From positions 32,001-96,000 of IMG/VR virus record IMGVR_UViG_2706795801_000001: a stretch of 64,000 nucleotides of DNA. The stretch is one strand, 5' to 3'. The translations under genes were made by a program, and so were the position numbers. Below are positions 9,379 to 60,800 of the stretch, piece by piece. The notes under the pieces were generated by a model, which saw only the letters and a list, made by a program, of their open reading frames with translations, searched no databases and was not told where the DNA came from. The DNA is from a virus. Taxonomy: Duplodnaviria; Caudoviricetes. Each line of letters begins with the position of its first letter. The first letter of the stretch is position 1.

Positions 9379-9633
9379 ATGAAACATCAACAATACATTG
9401 CATGTAAACGTGATGGTACTTTTGAATTTAGAAATGGTGAGCCTGTATTAAAACAAGAAGGTGATATTGCAATATTTAATTGTGAAGATAGTTTGGATTT
9501 ATCACAAATTAGTATGTTATCCGATTACTTTTATAACAACCCATTTAAAACGGGTACGTTTTCTAATCCAGCAGTTTCGTTAGAAGAATCTAGAATTCGG
9601 ACGAAAGATAAAATTAACAAAATAAAAGTTTGA
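9379..9633 (+). CDS. Hypothetical protein
   Basis: 84-aa ORF with AAGGGG RBS. Confidence 0.55.
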   Translation: MKHQQYIACKRDGTFEFRNGEPVLKQEGDIAIFNCEDSLDLSQISMLSDYFYNNPFKTGTFSNPAVSLEESRIRTKDKINKIKV

Positions 9634-9658
9634 CACACTTAGATGTTCAAGGTATTAT
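9630..9658 (+). promoter_or_regulatory. Sigma70 promoter of the RNA operon
   Basis: TTGACA-N17-TATTAT. Confidence 0.75.
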
Positions 9659-9671
9659 GTACTTATAGAAA

Positions 9672-9890
9672 CAAACGGGAGTTAAACGAAGATGTTCGTG
9701 GTTGCCGAGTCATGATTGCACTGGAGACACCTTTAACAATGTGATAATCGGGGCTAGGTTGCGGTGCGTTGGGCCAATCTATGGACGCCATCGTAAGCTG
9801 TTATTTCATTCGATAATAAGGATGGTGATAATATCTCGCAGCATGAAGCGATAGACATGCAAGCAAAGTTAACGCTATGCGCCAAATGCG
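9672..9890 (+). ncRNA. Candidate structured RNA, first element of the RNA operon
   Basis: GC-enriched, no RBS-led ORF, local helices such as CGCCATC/GATGGTG and GCATG/CATGC. Confidence 0.4.
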
Positions 9891-9908
9891 TTTAAATATT
9901 ATTTTTAT

Positions 9909-10032
9909 GCTAACTTTGGTTTAACGGTATAACGAAGCCGCTGAAAAAGATAAGATAACCCAAAGGCCACGGGTCGTATTCTTTAGTAGGTTAGAGGCTT
10001 AGGCGTCAAGTTCGACTCTTGGCAGGTTAGCA
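9909..10032 (+). ncRNA. tRNA-like RNA with enlarged anticodon arm
   Basis: Acceptor GCTAACTT/AGGTTAGC, D-like GTTTAACGGTATAAC, AAGCC/GGCTT stem enclosing ~56 nt, T arm TCAAG-TTCGACT-CTTGG. Confidence 0.65.
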
Positions 10033-10048
10033 TAAAAATAATATTTAA

Positions 10049-10124
10049 GCGTAATTAGCTCAGATGGTAGAGCGCTATCCTTCCAAGTTAGTGGTCATCG
10101 GTTCGAATCCGATATTACGCTCCA
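10049..10124 (+). tRNA. tRNA-Gly(UCC)
   Basis: Cloverleaf GCGTAAT/ATTACGC, anticodon loop CTTCCAA, TTCGAAT T-loop, encoded CCA. Confidence 0.95.
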
Positions 10125-10191
10125 AATGTCCAGTTGCAGGATTCTGGCACACGGTAATAACAACCGTATAATCAACACCTGCTTTAATTAA

Positions 10192-10268
10192 ATCTCGTTA
10201 GCTCAGTTGGATAGAGCAACAGCCTTCTAAGCTGTGGGTCGAAAGTTCGAATCTTTCACGGGATACCA
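10192..10268 (+). tRNA. tRNA-Arg(UCU)
   Basis: Cloverleaf ATCTCGT/ACGGGAT, ACAGC-CTTCTAA-GCTGT, encoded CCA. Confidence 0.95.
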
Positions 10269-10269
10269 A

Positions 10270-11960
10270 CTACTACACGTTAGTACTAGACAACACCATT
10301 GAGATATAGTATAGTTTGTGAGAAGGTTGTTTTGTCTTAGGGACCTATGATTGTAAGACCCAAGTGATACCTGCGTACAGGATGACAATCCGAATGACTG
10401 ACGTAAACAGTCTATATTTTAAAGTGTTTGGTAAGTTGATAGTGCGGCTCAATTTTAAATGGTATGAGGTGGCAGCATATCAGTCAAACACTTTAAAATG
10501 TAATTACATTGAAGTTATTATCATAGCTTCAATCAATTGTTACATTAAAAGGAGGATAAGCCACCTCCTTTCTGAGATACCATAAGAAATTGCGACTATG
10601 GTTAGAAGTTTAAATGGCAAACAATGTTGGTTGGCGCAGATTACGTCAGTTGCGGCAAAAGGCTTCGTTTACTGGAGTCGTTTAAAAGGTGGGCGAATAC
10701 AACACCTAACCAACAACACTTCTGATGTGTCTAAACTCAAGACGTATAGTAAATAAAAAGCTCTGCAAACCAGTAACGGAACTGGGAGAAGAAAGAAACA
10801 AAACGGTACGGAGTTATGTGGTTCTCCAGCAATACTATACACACTCCTCTGAAGAGTTTAATCTCAAGACAATACTCCTGCCCCGTCCTCGTAAGAGTTG
10901 GAGTTCTTTCCTGTAACAAGGTTGTAGCCAGAGTGCACATAAAAGTTATAATTCGGATTTAAGGTTGTTAGTCATCCTTAAGTAAATTATTGTAAAACTA
11001 ACAAATTCTACTGTATACTTGCCAATGGTTTAAGGTAGTCTTATAGCGGAAACGCACTTCATTGGCGCGATAATGTTTGTTAGTATTTATATACATCCCT
11101 CATTAACATGAGTTCTAGTTGTAATTACACAAGGCAGACTGCTAACGTCCCACATACAAAAGAGAGTACCACTCAAGTGTGGGTATTTGGTTGTTAGCCA
11201 GTCCGTGACTGGGTGATAAAACGACCGCTGGTATTGTAATTTAAGTTGTGGGTAACGTGATACCTTATGACCACACCCATGTTACAATGATGGTAATGTC
11301 GTTCATGAAAGTCATATTCCCTACCGAACCCAGATACTGGTTCAACACCTTGCCATTAATATATGGTTTCTGTGCAACGCAGACTAAGTAGGTTAATTTC
11401 GGGTCTGTTGTACAAGGTAACGCATATGCGTTAAATAGAAAGTTCCAATGGTTACGACCTTGGTAACGGCAAAGTCCTTTCCTATGCACCAATCAACGAT
11501 GTCATAGTCAGAGGCAAACACTAGGACATAACCCTGCCTAGTATAAAACGGTTTTGGGTGTAATAATATGTAAGCGACCACATGACTTTATCGTGGGGAC
11601 GGCTGGTATTCTGGTAAGATGATCCAAGACTCCATTATAATGGTAAACTTAAAGAACGCAAATGTGATGCTTTAGGCTAAAGCGTGGTGAGTGGGAGTAA
11701 CATCCAATTTAAGCAATGAGCCTTCAGGTAGCTCCTGAAATGTCCACGGATTCACATATATAGCTTGCACATGACCACTGATTCAAGCCAGTGCATAAGC
11801 AACTCCTGTCATTCGTGGCACTCGGTTGGGAGTATAATCTGGACTGGGAGACTAATAAAACCTTGTATTGTTCAAGGTCAGAAGTAAGACACTGTGAATG
11901 TCTAGGTAGACGTACTGACACATTGAGTCCCACCAAGTATTGGGTATCTACTCATACAGA
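10270..11960 (+). ncRNA. Large ornate non-coding RNA(s), GOLLD/ROOL-like candidate
   Basis: ~1.7 kb without an RBS-led ORF, after tRNAs and before a terminator; many long-range helices, GNRA-capped hairpins and pseudoknots. Confidence 0.6.
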
Positions 11961-11962
11961 TT

Positions 11963-11997
11963 AACACCCTTTCAGAAATGACTGGGTGTTTTCTTTT
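11963..11997 (+). terminator. Intrinsic terminator of the RNA operon
   Basis: AACACCC...GGGTGTT followed by T-tract. Confidence 0.75.
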
Positions 11998-12073
11998 ACC
12001 TGAAATTTGATCAGGGTTATCAGTACATGATAATATGATCTTATGAAACACACTATTAACAAGGAATAACAAA

Positions 12074-12265
12074 TTGCAATGTAGTTGCGGGAATACAATA
12101 CACAGACCGTCCTATACCTCTAAATCTAAATATGATTATATTTGTAATGAATGTAAAGGTTACGAAGTAGAAGACTATGATATACCTCCATCGGGGGAAG
12201 ATTTACTAAATATTAATTTAGAAAACTATAATAGATATGAATTAAGTGGTGATGGAAATGACTAA
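12074..12265 (+). CDS. Small Cys-containing protein
   Basis: CSCG...CNEC, AAGGA RBS, TTG start. Confidence 0.5.
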   Translation: MQCSCGNTIHRPSYTSKSKYDYICNECKGYEVEDYDIPPSGEDLLNINLENYNRYELSGDGND

Positions 12266-12611
12266 TAAGAATAAAGGTGGTAGACCTACATCAAGTCAAG
12301 TAGCTGAAAGAGAATGGGGTGCGCTGATTACAGACATGAAAGCTATGTCCCCTAAACTTATGAAGAAAGCTATGAAGAAGTACTCCGACATACTGGACTC
12401 TGAGAAGGCATCTGAATCTGCAACGCTACGAGCCTGCTCTGGAGCCTTCGATATAGTTAAATATTTGAATGACCTAGAAAAACGTGTGGCTGATATGGAT
12501 GCTGAAGAAGAAGCTACTGCAGAAGGTTTATTAGCTGCAGTGGTTGCTGAAGAAAAGAAGCCTATGATTAGTCTAGTGGCATTCGAACCACCAGAAAAGA
12601 AAGTGATGTAG
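12258..12611 (+). CDS. Possible terminase small subunit
   Basis: N-terminal GGRPTS, helical 117-aa protein upstream of terL; function is inferred. Confidence 0.45.
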   Translation: MTNKNKGGRPTSSQVAEREWGALITDMKAMSPKLMKKAMKKYSDILDSEKASESATLRACSGAFDIVKYLNDLEKRVADMDAEEEATAEGLLAAVVAEEKKPMISLVAFEPPEKKVM

Positions 12612-12658
12612 GTTATATTAAGTTTGACTGTATGTTCATGTTACTGTTATAATTACGT

Positions 12659-12825
12659 ATAGGTTGTGTGGCGGGGTTAAGTTCCTCCTCCTTACTTCAT
12701 CTGGCTACACTTCCTATATCCCTCCTAAAATGAGAGTAGTATATAACAGCTACCAGATATCTACAACCACACTTCCTCCTTCCCCCGCCTCATCAAATAC
12801 GTATGAGTGCGGGGTTTTTCTTTTT
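12659..12825 (+). ncRNA. Candidate sRNA with three anti-Shine-Dalgarno CCUCCU motifs
   Basis: Own promoter TTGACT(12624)/TGnTATAAT(12645-12653), 5' hairpin, terminator CCCCGC/GCGGGG + T-tract (12783-12825). Confidence 0.7.
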
Positions 12826-12844
12826 ATAAAATTTAAAATTAGTG

Positions 12845-12873
12845 TTGACACGATAGGTGTGAGGTAATATAGT
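12845..12873 (+). promoter_or_regulatory. Sigma70 promoter
   Basis: TTGACA-N17-TATAGT. Confidence 0.65.
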
Positions 12874-12907
12874 GAGTGTATTATTAATTGAAGAAGGGAG
12901 GTTTATA

Positions 12908-13270
12908 ATGTTTACTAAATTAAAATTGTGGTGGAGACTTGAGACTGGTAAGGATTTGCTTGAACAATTACAGAAAGGGTATGAGGAGCAGGTTATTATT
13001 ATCAGCGCCCTAGAGGATCAACTGGCCTCTTTAACTAGAACAGTTAAACTGCACACTAGGGTAGATGCAGATGTGAGTAGTACTAAGTATGATAAGTCTG
13101 TTATCATATGTTCTGGTAGATGGAAGAACCATTCGTACTCCGAGGTGTTTGAAGTCGAGGGTGGATTACTAAAAGATACTGTGGATATTCTTCGTGATAA
13201 GGAGAAAACGCACTCACGAGGTTATTACGATCTACCTTATGGTACTAATAGATTCTTTGGAGGTTTATAA
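12908..13270 (+). CDS. Hypothetical protein
   Basis: Track ORF 12872..13270; ATG at 12908 has a GGAGG RBS. Confidence 0.6.
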   Translation: MFTKLKLWWRLETGKDLLEQLQKGYEEQVIIISALEDQLASLTRTVKLHTRVDADVSSTKYDKSVIICSGRWKNHSYSEVFEVEGGLLKDTVDILRDKEKTHSRGYYDLPYGTNRFFGGL

Positions 13271-13272
13271 TT

Positions 13273-13530
13273 ATGGTTATCGCAATAGGTTTTGTATGTT
13301 TAATTGGTTGGGTATTAGGTGCATGGGTTCCTTGGTGGGTCGTAGCGGCTATGTGGTGTGGCTATGGTATCAATTTGTGTCTAGGTAAACAAAGTGGCTT
13401 AGATGGCGTTATAGACTTCCACTGTGGTATTATACTAATCACTGCAACAGTGTCAGGGTTCATCTTAGGTGATGTGACATTTGCAATGATTTGGGACTGG
13501 TTGGTGATGGTATTTACTGGAGGGATGTGA
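13273..13530 (+). CDS. Small membrane protein
   Basis: Hydrophobic 85-aa ORF, GGAGG RBS. Confidence 0.6.
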   Translation: MVIAIGFVCLIGWVLGAWVPWWVVAAMWCGYGINLCLGKQSGLDGVIDFHCGIILITATVSGFILGDVTFAMIWDWLVMVFTGGM

Positions 13531-13698: not shown

Positions 13699-14049
13699 GT
13701 GAGGTGGCACATGATAATTAAGTGCTACTACGATAAAACACTAAAAATGTCAGCAGGTAAACTTGCGGCACAAGTAGGTCATGTAGTTGCCAACATGGTT
13801 ACTAATTTAGCACCATCAAAAATCATAGTACTAGAGGCTAGCCATAATAAATTTATTGGGCTGTGTAAGGATTCCGAGTATGTACAGCATGACGTAGGAT
13901 TAACTGAAGTAGTAGAAGGTACACCCACTGTATGCGGATACACTTACAACAACCTAGGTAATACTATCCATACAGATGGAGGTTTTGGTTGTGTGGAGGA
14001 CTTCCAAAGTGAATACATGAGCGTTTTTAATGTTAAGGAGGACTTATGA
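13699..14049 (+). CDS. Peptidyl-tRNA hydrolase Pth2-like protein
   Basis: LKMSAGKLAAQVGH, KIIVL, DVGLTEVVEGTPTVCG match PTH2 motifs. Confidence 0.85.
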   Translation: MRWHMIIKCYYDKTLKMSAGKLAAQVGHVVANMVTNLAPSKIIVLEASHNKFIGLCKDSEYVQHDVGLTEVVEGTPTVCGYTYNNLGNTIHTDGGFGCVEDFQSEYMSVFNVKEDL

Positions 14050-14951: not shown

Positions 14952-17541
14952 ATGAGTGAAAAAACTTTATTTTCTCCAGCATCCCCTAAACAGGCGTTGA
15001 TGTTAAAGAGGGCAAGTGATACACAGATAGTTGTGATCGGTGGCGCTGCAGGTTCTGGAAAGTCCCATATTCTTAACCACTTACCCCTTCTTGTAGTTGA
15101 CGACCCTAGGACAAACTGTATTATGTACCGTAGGACTAACCCTCAACTAGAAGGTGGTTTGTGGCCTAACGGACGTAAGATTTGGGCAGAAATGCCAGAT
15201 TGGGTACCAAAAGAATATAAACCCAAGAATATCAGGGAGAAGGTTAAAGAAGTTATCCTTTATAACGGAGCTAAGATTAAATACAATCAGGCAGAAAATA
15301 CCTCTAGAGCTAAGGATGACGCCCAAGGACAGGAATTTACCTTAGTTTGTATTGACGAAGCAACACAACATGACTGGGAATTTATAGAATACTTAATGTC
15401 TCGTTTACGGTCGCCATCTAAGCATTTCTCAAGAATGGTGATGAGTTGTAACCCCGACCCAGATCATAAACTAAGGCAAATTATTGACTGGTACTTGGAT
15501 GAAGAAGGATACCCCGATCCAGATAAGGATGGAGTACAGAGGTATTTTATTACCCTTGATGGGGAGTTCCAATGGGGGAATACCAAAGCTGAATTAGGGG
15601 AGAGGTTCGATATACCCGAAAAAGACTGGGAAAGTAAAATATTATCCTTCGCGTTTGTCAGCGGGACTATTTACGATAACCCCCCCATGATGGTTTTGAA
15701 TCCACAGTACCTAGCTTTTCTTGAAGGCTTAAATGATATTGATAAAGCTCAACTGTTACACGGTTATCTAGTAGCCGCTTCATTCGTAATGGAATGTCGA
15801 TAATTTTGTTAATTGCTGGGAAATCTTTACACCTATTAGTTGCTATAGAATAAAGTATATAATTTGGCTATAGGTTTAGATAATCAGCACCTAAGGTATT
15901 ACCACCCAGAATAAAGTAAGGAAAATTATGAAAAATCTTAAAAGTTTAAATGCATCAAATTACTGTTTAACCCCTTGTGGTAAACTCTATTCCTTAAGAG
16001 TCAATAGTTTCATGGATGGTTGGGTAGTTGGTGGTTACCTGAAATACTCAATAACCTTCGATGATAGTTCTCATAAAGAAATGTTTGCTCACAGACTTGT
16101 GGCAATTGCTTATCTGGGAGGAGAAGATTCAAATAGGATTTTTGTGAACCATATAGACGGTAACACACTAAATAACCATAAAGATAATCTAGAGTGGGTA
16201 ACTCCGTCTGAGAACAACTTTCACGCTTATGAGACAAACCTTTCTGTTGGAAAAAAACATCACGTAGAAGGTCTAGAGTATCTTAAAGGTATATACAATG
16301 AAAGTTGTGATTATAAGAACCTCACAGAAGAGGATGTGCATCAAATATGTAAGCTCCTTGTTGCAGGCTATAGGGACGTGGATATAAGTCGTATGACTAA
16401 CTTACCCAGAAGGACAATAAACCACATACGTCATAAGGATCTTACCTTGTTTCCAAAGATTGTAGAACAATACTCGTTCTCTTTCACAAAAGAAGATCGG
16501 ATGTCACCAGAACAGGTAGTTCAAATATGTGAGATGTTACAGTGTGGGTGGAAAGTTATGGAATTATCTAGACATTTAGGGTTAAACAGGAAAAAAGTAG
16601 GTAATATTAAGAGTAGGAAGACCTTCCTTGATATATCTAAAGCATATAATTGGTAATACAAAGATCAACGACTAACCCTGACGGGTGTACGCTGTAAGCT
16701 TAAAGCAGTGGAAATACAAAACACCTAAGTAAATTTATATTTAGGTGAAGATATAGTCTAGACTGTATGGTGACATATAGAAGTTCATAAGAGAACTGAG
16801 TGTGATTTGCGAACTCACTTGAATAATACGAACTGGAATGCACGTGCTAAGGGGGCCAACTATCTACTTTCTGGATGGTTTCAAGAGGTTGATAGGATAC
16901 CTTCTGGTGGTGTAATGGCAAGAGGTTATGATTTAGCTGCCACTGAAAGGAGTCAAGTCAATAAACACCCTGATGCCACTACATCATGTAAAATGTTGAA
17001 ACATGAGGGGTATTACTACATTATTGGTAATTATCACGAAAGTTTTTATGATGATGTTGAAGATGTCTACGGGAGGGTATGTAAAAGGGTTGGTGATAGA
17101 GATAATGTAATGTTGTCTCAGGCGAAACTAGATGGAGATGAATGTACCATTGTTCTTCCCGTAGATCCAGCTTCTGCTGGTAAACAGGTGTATTTAGAGA
17201 TGTCTAAGTTTTTTACTGGTAATGGGTTTAGAGTTAAGAAAGACCCAGTAGCTGGTAATAAATCAAAACTTACTAGGTTCTTACCTTTTGCCACTGCAGC
17301 AGAGAATGGTTTAGTTAAGATAGTAAGGAACACTTTTGACGACAAAACTTATTTATGGATAATGAAAGAATTGGAAGCCTTTAACGGGGAAAGGTCAACT
17401 TCTACAAAAAAAGATGATTTTCCAGACTGTATTTCTACAGTTTTCAACTACTTATGTACCGCAAGGTCTAACAAAGCCTTCACCTTACCTACAATTGATT
17501 CTCCTTCTCTCCTATCTCACCATAAGTCGAGAATTAAATAA
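14952..17541 (+). CDS. terL: Terminase large subunit, spliced (exons 14952-15764 and 16831-17541; ~507 aa)
   Basis: GGAAGSGKS, IDEATQ, SCNPD in exon 1; splice restores LLHG|NWNAR; GYDLAAT and KKDDFPD nuclease motifs in exon 2. Confidence 0.93.
15765..16830 (+). mobile_element. Group I intron (IA-type) in terL with HNH ORF in P6
   Basis: P1 CGGT/GCCG with U-G pair; AATTGCTGGGAA, AATCAGCA, CAACGACTA, AAGATATAGTC core; omega-G 16830; in-frame ligation. Confidence 0.92.
15928..16656 (+). CDS. Intron-encoded HNH homing endonuclease with C-terminal HTH repeats
   Basis: AHRLVA...VNHIDGNTLNNHKDNLEWVTPSEN. Confidence 0.92.
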   Translation: MKNLKSLNASNYCLTPCGKLYSLRVNSFMDGWVVGGYLKYSITFDDSSHKEMFAHRLVAIAYLGGEDSNRIFVNHIDGNTLNNHKDNLEWVTPSENNFHAYETNLSVGKKHHVEGLEYLKGIYNESCDYKNLTEEDVHQICKLLVAGYRDVDISRMTNLPRRTINHIRHKDLTLFPKIVEQYSFSFTKEDRMSPEQVVQICEMLQCGWKVMELSRHLGLNRKKVGNIKSRKTFLDISKAYNW

Positions 17542-57889: not shown

Positions 57890-60800
57890 ATGTCAGAAGA
57901 AATCACCAAGTATGTAGTGGAGGCAGAATTTGATTCCGCTAAAGCTACAAAAAAGTTGGATGAGTTTAATAAGAAATTAACGTCTTATTCCAAAGCTCAG
58001 AACAACTTTAGAAAGAATAAAATGGGTATGCAGAGGGTTCTAGATAATACCAGAAAGCATAAGATGCTAACGGATGTTGTTAAGACGCCTCAGATAGCTA
58101 AATTGAAACCTCCAACATCACCAGTTAATAGATTAGAAACACTATCAGGTAAAGAGAAGGTACTACCTAACCTATATAAGTATAGTGAGGCTTCTTTAAA
58201 ACGACAAAGTGAATACTTAGATAAGATTAAAGATAAGAAGGTGAAACTATCTTATGTTAATAATCTAAATAAACAAGAGCGAAAGGTCAAGTTAGATAAC
58301 AAAATCCCCTCAAGACAGAAGGTAGCTGTTAGTGTCAAAACTAAAACCCCTACCAAACGTTTAGAGTCTAAGACTTCCAAAGTAAAACCTGTACCAACCT
58401 TAGACAGAAAAATAAGGATACTTAGTAAGGTAAAAGATAGTAGGGTTAACGAGAAAGACCAACCCAAACCTAGTAGATTACAAACACTAAAATCTAAAGA
58501 GAAACTATACCCAAACCTATATAAGTATAGTGAAGATTCTCTTAAGCGGCAAAGTGAATACCTAGCTAAGTTAAAAGATAAGAAGGTTAAATTAGATTTC
58601 ATCGACAATCTTGACAAGGTAAAGAAGAGATTAAAATCCTTAAATAGACAAAAGACTAGGGAAGTGCCTGATAAGATTAGTAAAGTAGTGGGTTCAGATA
58701 AGAAACCTTTACAGAAAATCAATACTATCAAGGAAAAGGTGGTCAAAGTAGGTAAATCCCCTAAACAGCCTATGCTAAATGCCCATCACAAGGAACGTGA
58801 GAAGTATTTAAATAAAGAGTACAAGAACAAGGTTAACAGGGAAAGGAGTTTAAAGTCTGCACACATCTTGGCTATCAAAGAAAACATTAAGTTTGATAGG
58901 AAAGCAGCAGAAGCTAAACGAAGCGAAGCAAGTAAACCAGATGGTATGGATACTCATCTTAAACAACGTGAGAAGTATTTAGATAAACAATACAAGAAAC
59001 AGTTAAGTCGAACTAAAGAGTTAAAAGCGGCACATGTAGCTGCTATTAAACAGAATATTAAGTTTGACAGACAACGGAAGATGGCTGCTGCTAAGGTTAA
59101 ACAACCTGCTATTATGAAACCTGCTGATGCTCATGTGAAAGCTAGAGAGGCTAGTATAGTTCAAGCTAATAGAAAGGAAACTCGTAGGAAGTCTAATCTA
59201 GGAGTCGCCAAAACATCATTTGATAGGTCTGACTTAAACCTAACTCAATATACTGACGCAAGACAACTTGCAGCACAAGCAGCACTGAGGGAGTCTATAG
59301 CGCAAGCTAAGACTGCTGATGAAGTCAAGATGATAGTTGCAACAGAACATAAACGCCTAAGAGTAATGAAGCAGAATGAGCGCTCTATGGGTAAGCAGAA
59401 CTACCTGATGCAACGTATGAACGCATCCAGTAAACAGTTTACAAGTAACATGTTCTCTGCATTCGCCATAGCTGGTGCTGGTGCTGGTATTACTAGAATA
59501 GGACAAGACTTCGAAGCAGTAAATAACACCATGTTGGCAGTAAGTACTAATACGCAAGAAGCAGGATCTAACTTTAAGTTTGTTAGAGATGAAGCTTATA
59601 GGTTAGGACTAGGACTTGCAAACAGTGGTAAGAACTTTGCTAAGATGTTATCTGCCAGAGGTAATATGAGCCTAGAGGATACAAAGAAAGCCTTCACAGG
59701 TATTTCAGAAATGTCTACATTGTTGGGGTTAAGTGCAGAAGAAAGTACAAGAGCTAAAGTTTGTGGCTCCTTTTAATAGTAATGTTAAATGTAAAATCTT
59801 TTTAATTGCTGGGACACCCACTTTATGGTGGACAATCAGCAGGGACGTTAACGTAAGTTAACACCTTCAGAGACTAACCCGTTAGGGTGTAGATTCTACT
59901 TAGAATCGAAAATAAGAAATCCTTTTAGGATTAAGATATAGTCCACAGACAAACGCTTTACAACAAATAAATCATTGTTTGGCTTCATAGAAATGTGATG
60001 AATAATTAAATTTATGAATTCGGTGGATCTCCTAAATGGAAGTAGGACAATACCGAGCGAAGCCTCGAAAGAGGAACGTGTAAAGACTAACTCGTAAGAG
60101 TGTAGGGGACGATACTATATCCTCGAAGCGTAAATAACCTGAACATTAAGTTGAAGGTTAAGATATAGTCTGAACTTCTATAGTAATATAGAGCGTATAA
60201 TACGGAGTAAGTCATTGATTTACTTAACAATTTTGGATGAGTAAAGGAGTTGTATCGGCTAAATCCTTGGCCTTTTAACTAGCGATAGTTATCAATAATT
60301 CATTTAATTGCTGGAACCTCTCATATGAGACAATCAGCAGGGAAGACTACTCGTAGTAACCTCCAACGACCAACCGTTATCGGTGTAGATTCTAAGTAGA
60401 GTCGAAACAGTGAAAACCTCTAAGGAGGTTATGATATGGTCTAGCCCTATAGTGATATAGGTTATATCTAAAGACTTTGATATAGTGACTCTTAACGTAA
60501 GTCATTGATTTAACTAGAGGAATTAAAGCTTCAAATGGGTAAACTTTGCCCAGTATAAAATTATTTAATTGCGAGAAGCCTTAATGCTTGTGACAGATGA
60601 TGTATTTATGGTATCATTGTTGCAGGTGAGATGGTAATTCGCAGGGAAGACCCACCACCTCAAAAGAGGAGTGTGTTGATATTATGAAAGCTATAGAAGA
60701 ATTTCCAAATTACTTTATTGATGAAAGCGGTAATGTGTTTAATAGTAGAGGGGTTCCAATTAAATCCCAATTAAATATAGATGGTTATAGGGTAGTAAAC

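Follow-up and report, generated by a model that had tools for sequence, protein, structure and literature searches.

A candidate small RNA family with two conserved anti-Shine-Dalgarno motifs in phages related to Shewanella phage 1/40

The locus and its predicted transcription unit

The analyzed stretch of 64,000 nucleotides, hereafter called the window, comprises bases 32001 to 96000 of a 133.8-kb phage genome from IMG/VR that bears direct terminal repeats. The closest cultured relative of this phage is Shewanella phage 1/40 (139 kb), which originates from Baltic Sea ice. The locus described here, which is predicted to encode a small RNA (sRNA) and is present as a single copy in the genome, lies within a block of small plus-strand genes, 3′ of a cluster of tRNA-Gly and tRNA-Arg genes and approximately 2.1 kb upstream of the large-terminase gene, which is itself split by an HNH endonuclease gene. 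Its features are as follows (window coordinates; SD, Shine-Dalgarno sequence).

12258 to 12611, plus strand: ORF of the upstream 117-aa protein gene, with a GGRPT N terminus and two long helices
12624 to 12653, plus strand: sRNA promoter, composed of the −35 element TTGACT, an 18-nt spacer, and the extended −10 element TG-n-TATAAT
12659 to 12824, plus strand: predicted sRNA transcript of approximately 166 nt (166 to 167 nt)
12659 to 12717, plus strand: 5′-terminal long hairpin, beginning at the predicted +1 and found in both the minimum free energy (MFE) and the centroid structure
12664 to 12867, plus strand: 67-aa ORF overlapping the sRNA, not a gene (TTG start, no SD, crosses the terminator)
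12687 to 12693, plus strand: seed 1, the apical-loop copy of CCUCCUU within the 5′ hairpin, unchanged throughout the family; in the window the motif is longer and reads CCUCCUCCUU from 12684
12720 to 12726, plus strand: middle motif CCCUCCU, predicted to be accessible here, not conserved in the family
12725 to 12757, plus strand: central conserved module with invariant columns, consisting of CUAAAAUGAGAG, a covarying 5-bp hairpin (12736 to 12753), and then CCAGA
12775 to 12781, plus strand: seed 2, a single-stranded CCUCCUU immediately ahead of the terminator hairpin, likewise unchanged throughout the family
12783 to 12825, plus strand: intrinsic terminator, a bulged G+C-rich hairpin (12783 to 12814) followed by a U run
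12845 to 12873, plus strand: another conserved promoter (TTGACA, 17 nt, TATAGT), for the genes that follow

Several further features were noted in the surroundings. The large-terminase gene (window 14952 to 17541) consists of an ORF for the N-terminal ATPase and an ORF for the C-terminal nuclease with the HNH endonuclease gene between them, and it is likewise split in phage 1/40. On the other side of the locus, a stretch of approximately 2.4 kb surrounding tRNA-Gly and tRNA-Arg (window 9633 to 12074) lacks a credible ORF; it contains a hairpin made up of AGGAGG, 8 nt, and CCUCCU at 10550 to 10569, and in phage 1/40 the matching stretch is annotated with three tiny CDSs and a pseudo-tRNA. At or near a position downstream of a gene for an 85- to 88-aa membrane protein, the window carries a PTH2-like gene (13711 to 14049) and three relatives carry a gene for an RF-1-domain (ArfB-like) protein (L016:5876-6238, L017:1929-2300, and L018:6981-7355); these unrelated peptidyl-tRNA hydrolase folds appear to swap for one another. 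Three tandem matches to group I intron models, each above the gathering score, are located at window 59745 to 60462, and the relative L018 contains two sub-threshold intron matches close to NUMOD4 and HNH genes.

The 117-aa protein gene is the left neighbor of the sRNA in every relative that carries the latter. In a large protein collection, its product has 24 relatives at 38 to 87% identity; it has no Pfam family, is singleton-like with respect to PHROG, and gave no significant sequence match to the PDB (best E = 0.12). The AlphaFold model of the protein is a two-helix hairpin with a pLDDT of 73.6, and neither Pfam, the PDB sequence search, nor this model gave any sign of RNA binding.

The sRNA promoter agrees with the sigma70 consensus at 11 of 12 positions and has the TG of an extended −10 element. 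From this promoter we infer the 5′ end of the transcript and its synthesis, and the 3′ end was placed inside the U run of the terminator. The latter was missed by a simple terminator scan because of a one-base bulge; its U run consists of 4 to 5 U interrupted by C or A, and a pyrimidine-rich single strand is present as well. For comparison, Hfq-dependent sRNAs of the enterobacterial type have a terminator hairpin with a U tail and, next to it, a U-rich single strand. An earlier note made from the letters of this DNA had described a promoter, approximately 165 nt, and then a terminator, and this arrangement was recovered (TTGACT and TG-TATAAT, approximately 166 nt, and a strong intrinsic terminator). 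The predicted RNA folds with −49.1 kcal/mol (z = −4.8 relative to 200 dinucleotide shuffles) into three elements, i.e., the 5′-terminal hairpin, the small central hairpin, and the terminator. The stems of the 5′ hairpin, the domain of which has a z-score of −5.4 for the window sequence, are AUAGG/CCUAU and GUGUGGC/GCUACAC, and its apical stem can adopt two registers, either UAAG/CUUA with a 9-nt loop or, in the MFE structure, AAGU/ACUU with an 11-nt loop. The long hairpin and the stems that the earlier note had named are in accordance with this prediction, UAAG/CUUA being one of the two apical registers.

No known RNA family accounts for the unit. Rfam gave no family match for the sRNA at a permissive threshold of E ≤ 10 on window 12000 to 13500, at the gathering score on the whole window, or at E ≤ 1 on six relatives, and identity as a tRNA or tmRNA was ruled out by ARAGORN.

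The second promoter (TTGACA/TATAGT) is conserved among the relatives. As the downstream genes have their own promoter at 12845 to 12873, the sRNA unit is separate from them. In the window (12845 to 12907) and in three relatives (L016:4630-4720, L017:1575-1665, and L022:3575-3710), the region of this promoter comes after the sRNA terminator. A covarying 5′-UTR hairpin (CGGCGAUUAUUGCCG and then UGAAU) follows the second promoter in L016, L017, L022, L023, L025, and L028 and is absent from the window and from L018; it is possibly a second RNA element.

Relatives of the unit and their conservation

In phage 1/40, where the region is annotated as intergenic, the unit is 100% identical from promoter through terminator, and homology ends directly past the terminator, where phage 1/40 has a different gene. 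As the two sRNAs are identical, the pair gives no covariation. Phage 1/40 was the only relative recovered by scans of IMG/VR with three exact patterns and the upstream protein, and in the TerL-based relatives L006 to L015 (51 to 66% identity) no sRNA was found by motif count, nhmmer, or model R1. The diverged relatives were reached via the upstream 117-aa protein, and the contigs of nine homologues were inspected. Two of these, L019 and L020, gave no view of the sRNA site: contig L020 ends at the 117-aa gene, so that the site lies off the contig, and in L019 another gene directly follows the 117-aa homologue, leaving no room for the unit. All remaining inspected contigs contain the sRNA unit after the 117-aa homologue. 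A first pattern scan of metagenomes yielded no copy; with a degenerate pattern, five true copies were obtained from JGI metagenomes, all belonging to the L031 subgroup and two of them on contigs of approximately 129.7 kb, together with nine false matches. No sRNA unit was found in the bacterial genomes of GTDB, where all five matches were unrelated palindromic repeats. Such repeats occur in Hymenobacter/Cytophagales genomes and some metagenome contigs (L033, L035, L036, L037, L040, L043, and L046) and have the form CCCCUCCUU...AAGGAGGGG around CTAGAA(T/G)TAGAA; they are chance pattern matches unrelated to the phage sRNA.

The family comprises at least eight sequence variants from approximately 20 metagenomic phage contigs and Shewanella phage 1/40, the unit standing after the homologous upstream gene in L016, L017, L018, L022 to L031, L044 to L051, and phage 1/40. 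Homologous units have lengths of 157 to 225 nt (L016, L017, L018, L022, L023, L025, L026, L028, L031, L044, and L045), with 55 to 72% identity between subgroups. This sRNA family of virulent phages of approximately 120 to 140 kb related to Shewanella phage 1/40 is previously undescribed.

The promoter geometry is kept in all relatives, with a −35-like TTGnnT and TGnTATAAT at the same position and a spacer of variable sequence. In L023, an IS605-type element containing a MerR-like HTH gene and a TnpB gene (L023:3467-4992) resides between the −35 and −10 elements of the sRNA promoter; a new −35-like sequence, TTGATG, is contributed by the end of the element at a distance of 17 nt from the TGATATAAT that follows, and the sRNA has remained intact. 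The 5′ hairpin of the relatives begins at the predicted +1 with AUA, and its stems vary in sequence and length, with CCUCCUU always present in the apical loop. Both seeds are found at homologous places in 12 of 12 sequences, the surrounding stems having diverged. Seed 1 corresponds to seven consecutive invariant columns (C29 to T35) of the MAFFT alignment A4, which has a mean column identity of 58%, and seed 2 is located 1 to 5 nt before the terminator stem in all 12 sequences. Judged by the aligned sequences, the anti-SD motifs are the most conserved portion of the sRNA.

The hairpin of the central module shows compensatory change in five of five pairs, and an extra hairpin is inserted in some subgroups. 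For the central hairpin and the terminator combined, 97.9% of the alignment cells are paired and seven pairs are compensatory, a result reached by none of 500 shuffles, and slid controls gave 31 to 55%; in the terminator by itself, every cell is paired (100%, 10 sequences), and its two outer pairs have undergone compensatory change. The 5′ hairpin, evaluated with a single consensus, has 67% of cells paired (37 to 46% in slid controls) and 11 compensatory pairs, and its covariation score was reached by 2 of 500 shuffles. The value of only 67% arises because the stems differ in length and bulges, which makes the MAFFT alignment of this hairpin inconsistent with the structure. Owing to the poor single consensus, the 5′ hairpin was also judged by per-sequence folds, in which every variant forms it (z of −1.4 to −6.2 for the domain and −3.2 to −6.5 for the whole RNA), and model R1 detects it in all sRNA-carrying relatives. 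Covariation lends less support to conservation of the 5′ hairpin than to that of the central hairpin and the terminator.

The coding potential behaves differently. The frame starting from a conserved AUG comprises 4 codons in L016, L018, and L026, approximately 31 in L017, and 46 in the window; the AUG, present in most members, is absent from the L022 subgroup (L022, L023, and L025), and the indels among the relatives are not multiples of three. The earlier note had allowed that translation of the overlapping 67-aa ORF might explain the sequence, which was not borne out, as this ORF is conserved in neither length nor frame. A minigene resembling that of lambda bar, starting from the conserved AUG, was also considered but discarded, because it would lack an SD and one subgroup does not have the AUG.

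The middle CCCUCCU motif is missing at its position in L016, L017, L028, and L031, which represent four subgroups, and some family members have extra CCUCC copies at other places. The family is therefore described by two conserved seeds plus facultative copies. Three anti-SD motifs had been claimed previously; all three are present and predicted to be accessible in the window, but only the loop copy and the copy before the terminator are conserved. As the promoter, the hairpins, the terminator, and the two seeds are conserved and the 67-aa ORF is not, the sequences represent a real noncoding RNA family. The existence of the unit as well as the structure and conservation pattern of its RNA were established in silico, and we are highly confident that the unit constitutes a genuine conserved sRNA gene. 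The designation as a stand-alone sRNA in the earlier note has accordingly held up at the level of sequence, with promoter, hairpins, and terminator conserved and covarying and the ORF not conserved.

Proposed mode of action and competing readings

CCUCCUU is the core of the 16S rRNA 3′ tail, i.e., of the anti-SD sequence, and therefore exactly complementary to AAGGAGG, the canonical SD. The predicted mean unpaired probability in the window is 0.99 for the loop motif, 0.74 to 0.78 for the middle motif, and 0.97 to 0.98 for the 3′ motif; across the family variants, both conserved CCUCCUU copies have predicted values of 0.59 to 1.0, and no G-rich stretch able to mask them exists inside the sRNA. 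Of the 17 CCTCCT sites on the plus strand of the 64-kb window, 4 fall within the sRNA unit. Nowhere else in the 133.8-kb genome do four CCTCC copies occur on a single strand in a span of 120 nt, the maximum elsewhere being two on the plus strand or three on the minus strand. This clustering is not due to chance. CCTCCT is indeed uncommon on the sense strand, as had been asserted before, and the unit is the densest CCUCC cluster of the genome. The possibility that the motifs, read as AAGGAGG on the other strand, serve as SDs of minus-strand genes was dismissed; there is neither a start codon at usable spacing nor a conserved ORF.

As both invariant CCUCCUU copies are predicted to be accessible, they probably block ribosome-binding sites. 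In the proposed sequence of events, host RNA polymerase would transcribe the sRNA from its own strong sigma70-type promoter and stop at the intrinsic terminator. The RNA would then display two unpaired CCUCCUU copies, one in the apical loop and one in the single strand before the terminator, as redundant seeds that may pair with SD sequences of the AAGGAGG type. Pairing would keep 30S subunits off the bound mRNAs and result in translational repression, in the manner of the CU-rich seeds of LhrC, RsaE/RNAIII, and CcsR; potential targets are host mRNAs, the strong-SD mRNAs of the phage's own replication block, or both. We infer base pairing and repression from the predicted structure and the conservation pattern, and consider anti-SD pairing a moderately probable mechanism. 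If it operates, phages of this group would reprogram translation via RNA mimicry of the sequence with which the ribosome docks onto mRNA.

The distribution of potential targets in the phage genome was analyzed using 197 predicted translation-initiation regions (TIRs), counts of which rest on crude in-house gene calls. AAGGAGG occurs in 13 of the 197 TIRs, with 11 of these in the small-gene and replication blocks. For GGAGG, the count is 29 of 104 TIRs in the replication/nucleotide-metabolism block, the small-gene block, and the 103- to 119-kb block; the structural and right-end blocks together have it in 5 of 93 TIRs, which corresponds to a 6.8-fold enrichment in the former group (Fisher p = 2e-5). 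Due to this uneven distribution of GGAGG-type SDs, a class-selective effect is possible. The earlier statement that many early genes have AGGAGG ribosome-binding sites and several late tail genes weaker ones was roughly confirmed by these counts (29/104 versus 5/93), except that the promoter-rich right-end block has almost none of the strong sites. This plus-strand block (G000:C1:119000-131300, corresponding to window 87000 to 99300 and extending past the window end) is rich in sigma70-like promoters and comprises 26 small genes, whose ribosome-binding sites are weak and of the AAGG/AGGU type; GGAGG is missing from all 26. Possibly, this block is devoted to host takeover and its genes initiate translation in a different style.

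A search for individual targets in the phage genome gave a uniform picture. Complementarity to the sRNA nowhere reaches 13 nt, the longest perfect match being 12 nt and not at a start site. Among the 197 TIRs, perfect matches (at least 9 nt considered) extend over only 9 to 10 nt and represent the SD core, so that no specific target with pairing past this core of 7 to 10 nt emerged, and ranking the TIRs by duplex energy did not discriminate between targets. Three considerations count against the pairing model: a generic anti-SD RNA expressed from an early-type promoter would also strike the neighboring strong-SD genes of the phage itself, the invariant central module has no role in the model, and a 7-nt motif occurring twice is also what a protein-binding sponge would look like.

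A broader form of the pairing model would make the sRNA a global competitor of the ribosomal anti-SD tail, and thereby an RNA counterpart of RegB and RegA of phage T4. By coating AAGGAGG and GGAGG sites, it would shut off strong-SD mRNAs of the host as well as those of the phage's own replication block (28% GGAGG), and translation capacity would move to the structural and right-end genes (5% GGAGG). A virulent phage would then possess a translational switch that acts on a sequence class rather than on specific genes. We regard this extension as unlikely.

The motifs might also serve to capture a protein. As a decoy or sponge, the exposed pyrimidine-rich copies resembling the 16S tail would titrate a protein, with no pairing to mRNA, and thereby change host translation or blunt a defence. 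Era and ribosomal protein S1 bind sequences that are 16S-tail-like or pyrimidine-rich. Candidates are S1, a factor such as Era or bS21 that recognizes the 3′ tail of the 16S rRNA, or a nuclease of either the host or the phage. Consistent with such a role, a short motif is present twice and invariant next to an invariant central module that base pairing leaves unexplained, no phage RNA offers extended complementarity, and genes related to translation and RNA repair are found in the neighborhood (PTH2-like or RF-1-domain genes, HAD_SAK_2, CCA-adding enzyme, and tRNAs). However, the invariant part is the exact Watson-Crick complement of the canonical SD core, for which base pairing is the simplest account, the flanks upstream of CCUCC do not resemble the 16S tail, and GAUCA is lacking. 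Moreover, no candidate binding protein was found, the upstream protein being a plain helical hairpin without a match to an RNA-binding family. A protein decoy appears quite improbable; if the sRNA is one, it would indicate that phage and host are in conflict at the ribosome in a new way.

We attach a small probability to a function in cis for the flanking operons, in which the unit would be either the structured 3′ end of the upstream transcript, acting as terminator and stabilizer, or a read-through leader, the anti-SD stretches of which fold onto the SD of the next gene. The unit is always positioned after the same gene and before genes with strong SDs, its 3′ CCUCCUU lies approximately 120 nt upstream of the next SD, and CcsR RNAs likewise derive from the UTR of a neighboring small gene (PMC8034643). 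On the other hand, every member retains the sRNA's own promoter, which was even restored following insertion of the IS element, and another conserved promoter, that of the downstream genes, stands past the terminator. In addition, the terminator is strong and has a U run behind it, and the sRNA of the window is identical to that of phage 1/40 even though the downstream gene differs.

Even less probable is a sponge for G-rich regulatory RNAs of the host (sRNAs with GGA motifs of the CsrB/RsmY/RsmZ type), by which a global regulator of the host would be freed or rewired. Repeated motifs with predicted accessibility would suit this purpose, but the invariant heptamer is the exact anti-SD core and longer than a complement of GGA requires, and no precedent was found in the literature searched. 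A small protein as the product of the region, whether from the 67-aa ORF at 12664 to 12867 or from a shorter one that starts at the AUG present in most members, has a negligible probability in view of the lack of an SD, the anti-SD sequence upstream of the AUG, the extension of the ORF across the terminator, its length varying from 4 to 46 codons or the AUG being absent, and stems that covary as RNA.

Comparison with known systems

With respect to anti-SD pairing, the closest resemblance in layout is to sRNAs such as LhrC1-5, RsaE/RoxS, RNAIII, and SprD, which are stand-alone sRNAs with redundant CU-rich motifs in a loop and in the strand beside the terminator. LhrC of Listeria monocytogenes uses such redundant motifs in loop and single-stranded regions to bind SDs and block translation (PMC4132741). 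As in the LhrC/RsaE/RNAIII class, the phage sRNA is predicted to be an independent unit with a promoter and an intrinsic terminator, and its C-rich motifs are exposed (predicted unpaired 0.59 to 1.0) and conserved (12/12). The motif of the LhrC group is UCCC, whereas that of the phage sRNA is the full anti-SD heptamer CCUCCUU, for which pairing is a prediction, and the conserved copies number two rather than three. The LhrC group is found in Firmicutes, whereas the phage sRNA belongs to a virulent phage of a gammaproteobacterium, and the two share neither sequence nor Rfam kinship.

The CcsR or cuckoo RNAs of Alphaproteobacteria (Rfam ar14) have CCUCCUCCC loops, follow the anti-SD principle, and are made from the UTR of a neighboring small gene (PMC8034643). 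The phage sRNA resembles them in having an anti-SD CCUCC in a hairpin loop and a small protein gene as a constant neighbor. Cuckoo RNAs possess at least two hairpins, each with a CCUCCUCCC loop, whereas the phage sRNA has one motif-bearing loop and a single-stranded second copy; in its relatives L016, L018, L026, and L031, the loop carries only CCUCCUU or CCCUCCUU and not the full CCUCCUCCC. The cuckoo/ar14 covariance model gave no match at E ≤ 10 on window 12000 to 13500 or at E ≤ 1 on six relatives. In the CIN1 subgroup of the cuckoo RNAs, the adjacent gene is of the DUF1127 type, whereas the neighbor of the phage sRNA has no Pfam match, and the lineage is phage rather than alphaproteobacterial. 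The likeness to cuckoo RNAs drawn in the earlier note thus extends to the working principle and not to family membership, given the lack of an Rfam match, the single loop motif, and the lack of DUF1127.

In the literature searched on phage-encoded sRNAs, most examples are prophage-encoded, and none with anti-SD seeds was found. The c4 antisense RNA of phages P1 and P7 blocks translation by pairing of its loop sequences around the ribosome-binding site (PMC12197685). c4 recognizes specific complementary sites in its own operon, whereas the phage sRNA finds less than 13 nt of complementarity anywhere in the phage genome, its seeds matching the generic SD core. Phage T4 inactivates a class of mRNAs via GGAG-type SD or initiation regions by means of two proteins, the RegB endoribonuclease and the RegA repressor. 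The relationship to these is a functional analogy only, as the phage sRNA is an RNA, and by this analogy the GGAGG-type SDs concentrated in particular blocks of its genome would be the affected class.

The phage sRNA is, in summary, a new family of a known mechanistic kind and a member of none of the families compared, its mechanism being predicted from the sequence. Should the proposed mechanism apply, it would add a new family to RNA databases. With Shewanella phage 1/40, which encodes an identical sRNA, a cultured model is at hand, and the two 7-nt seeds provide a testable handle.
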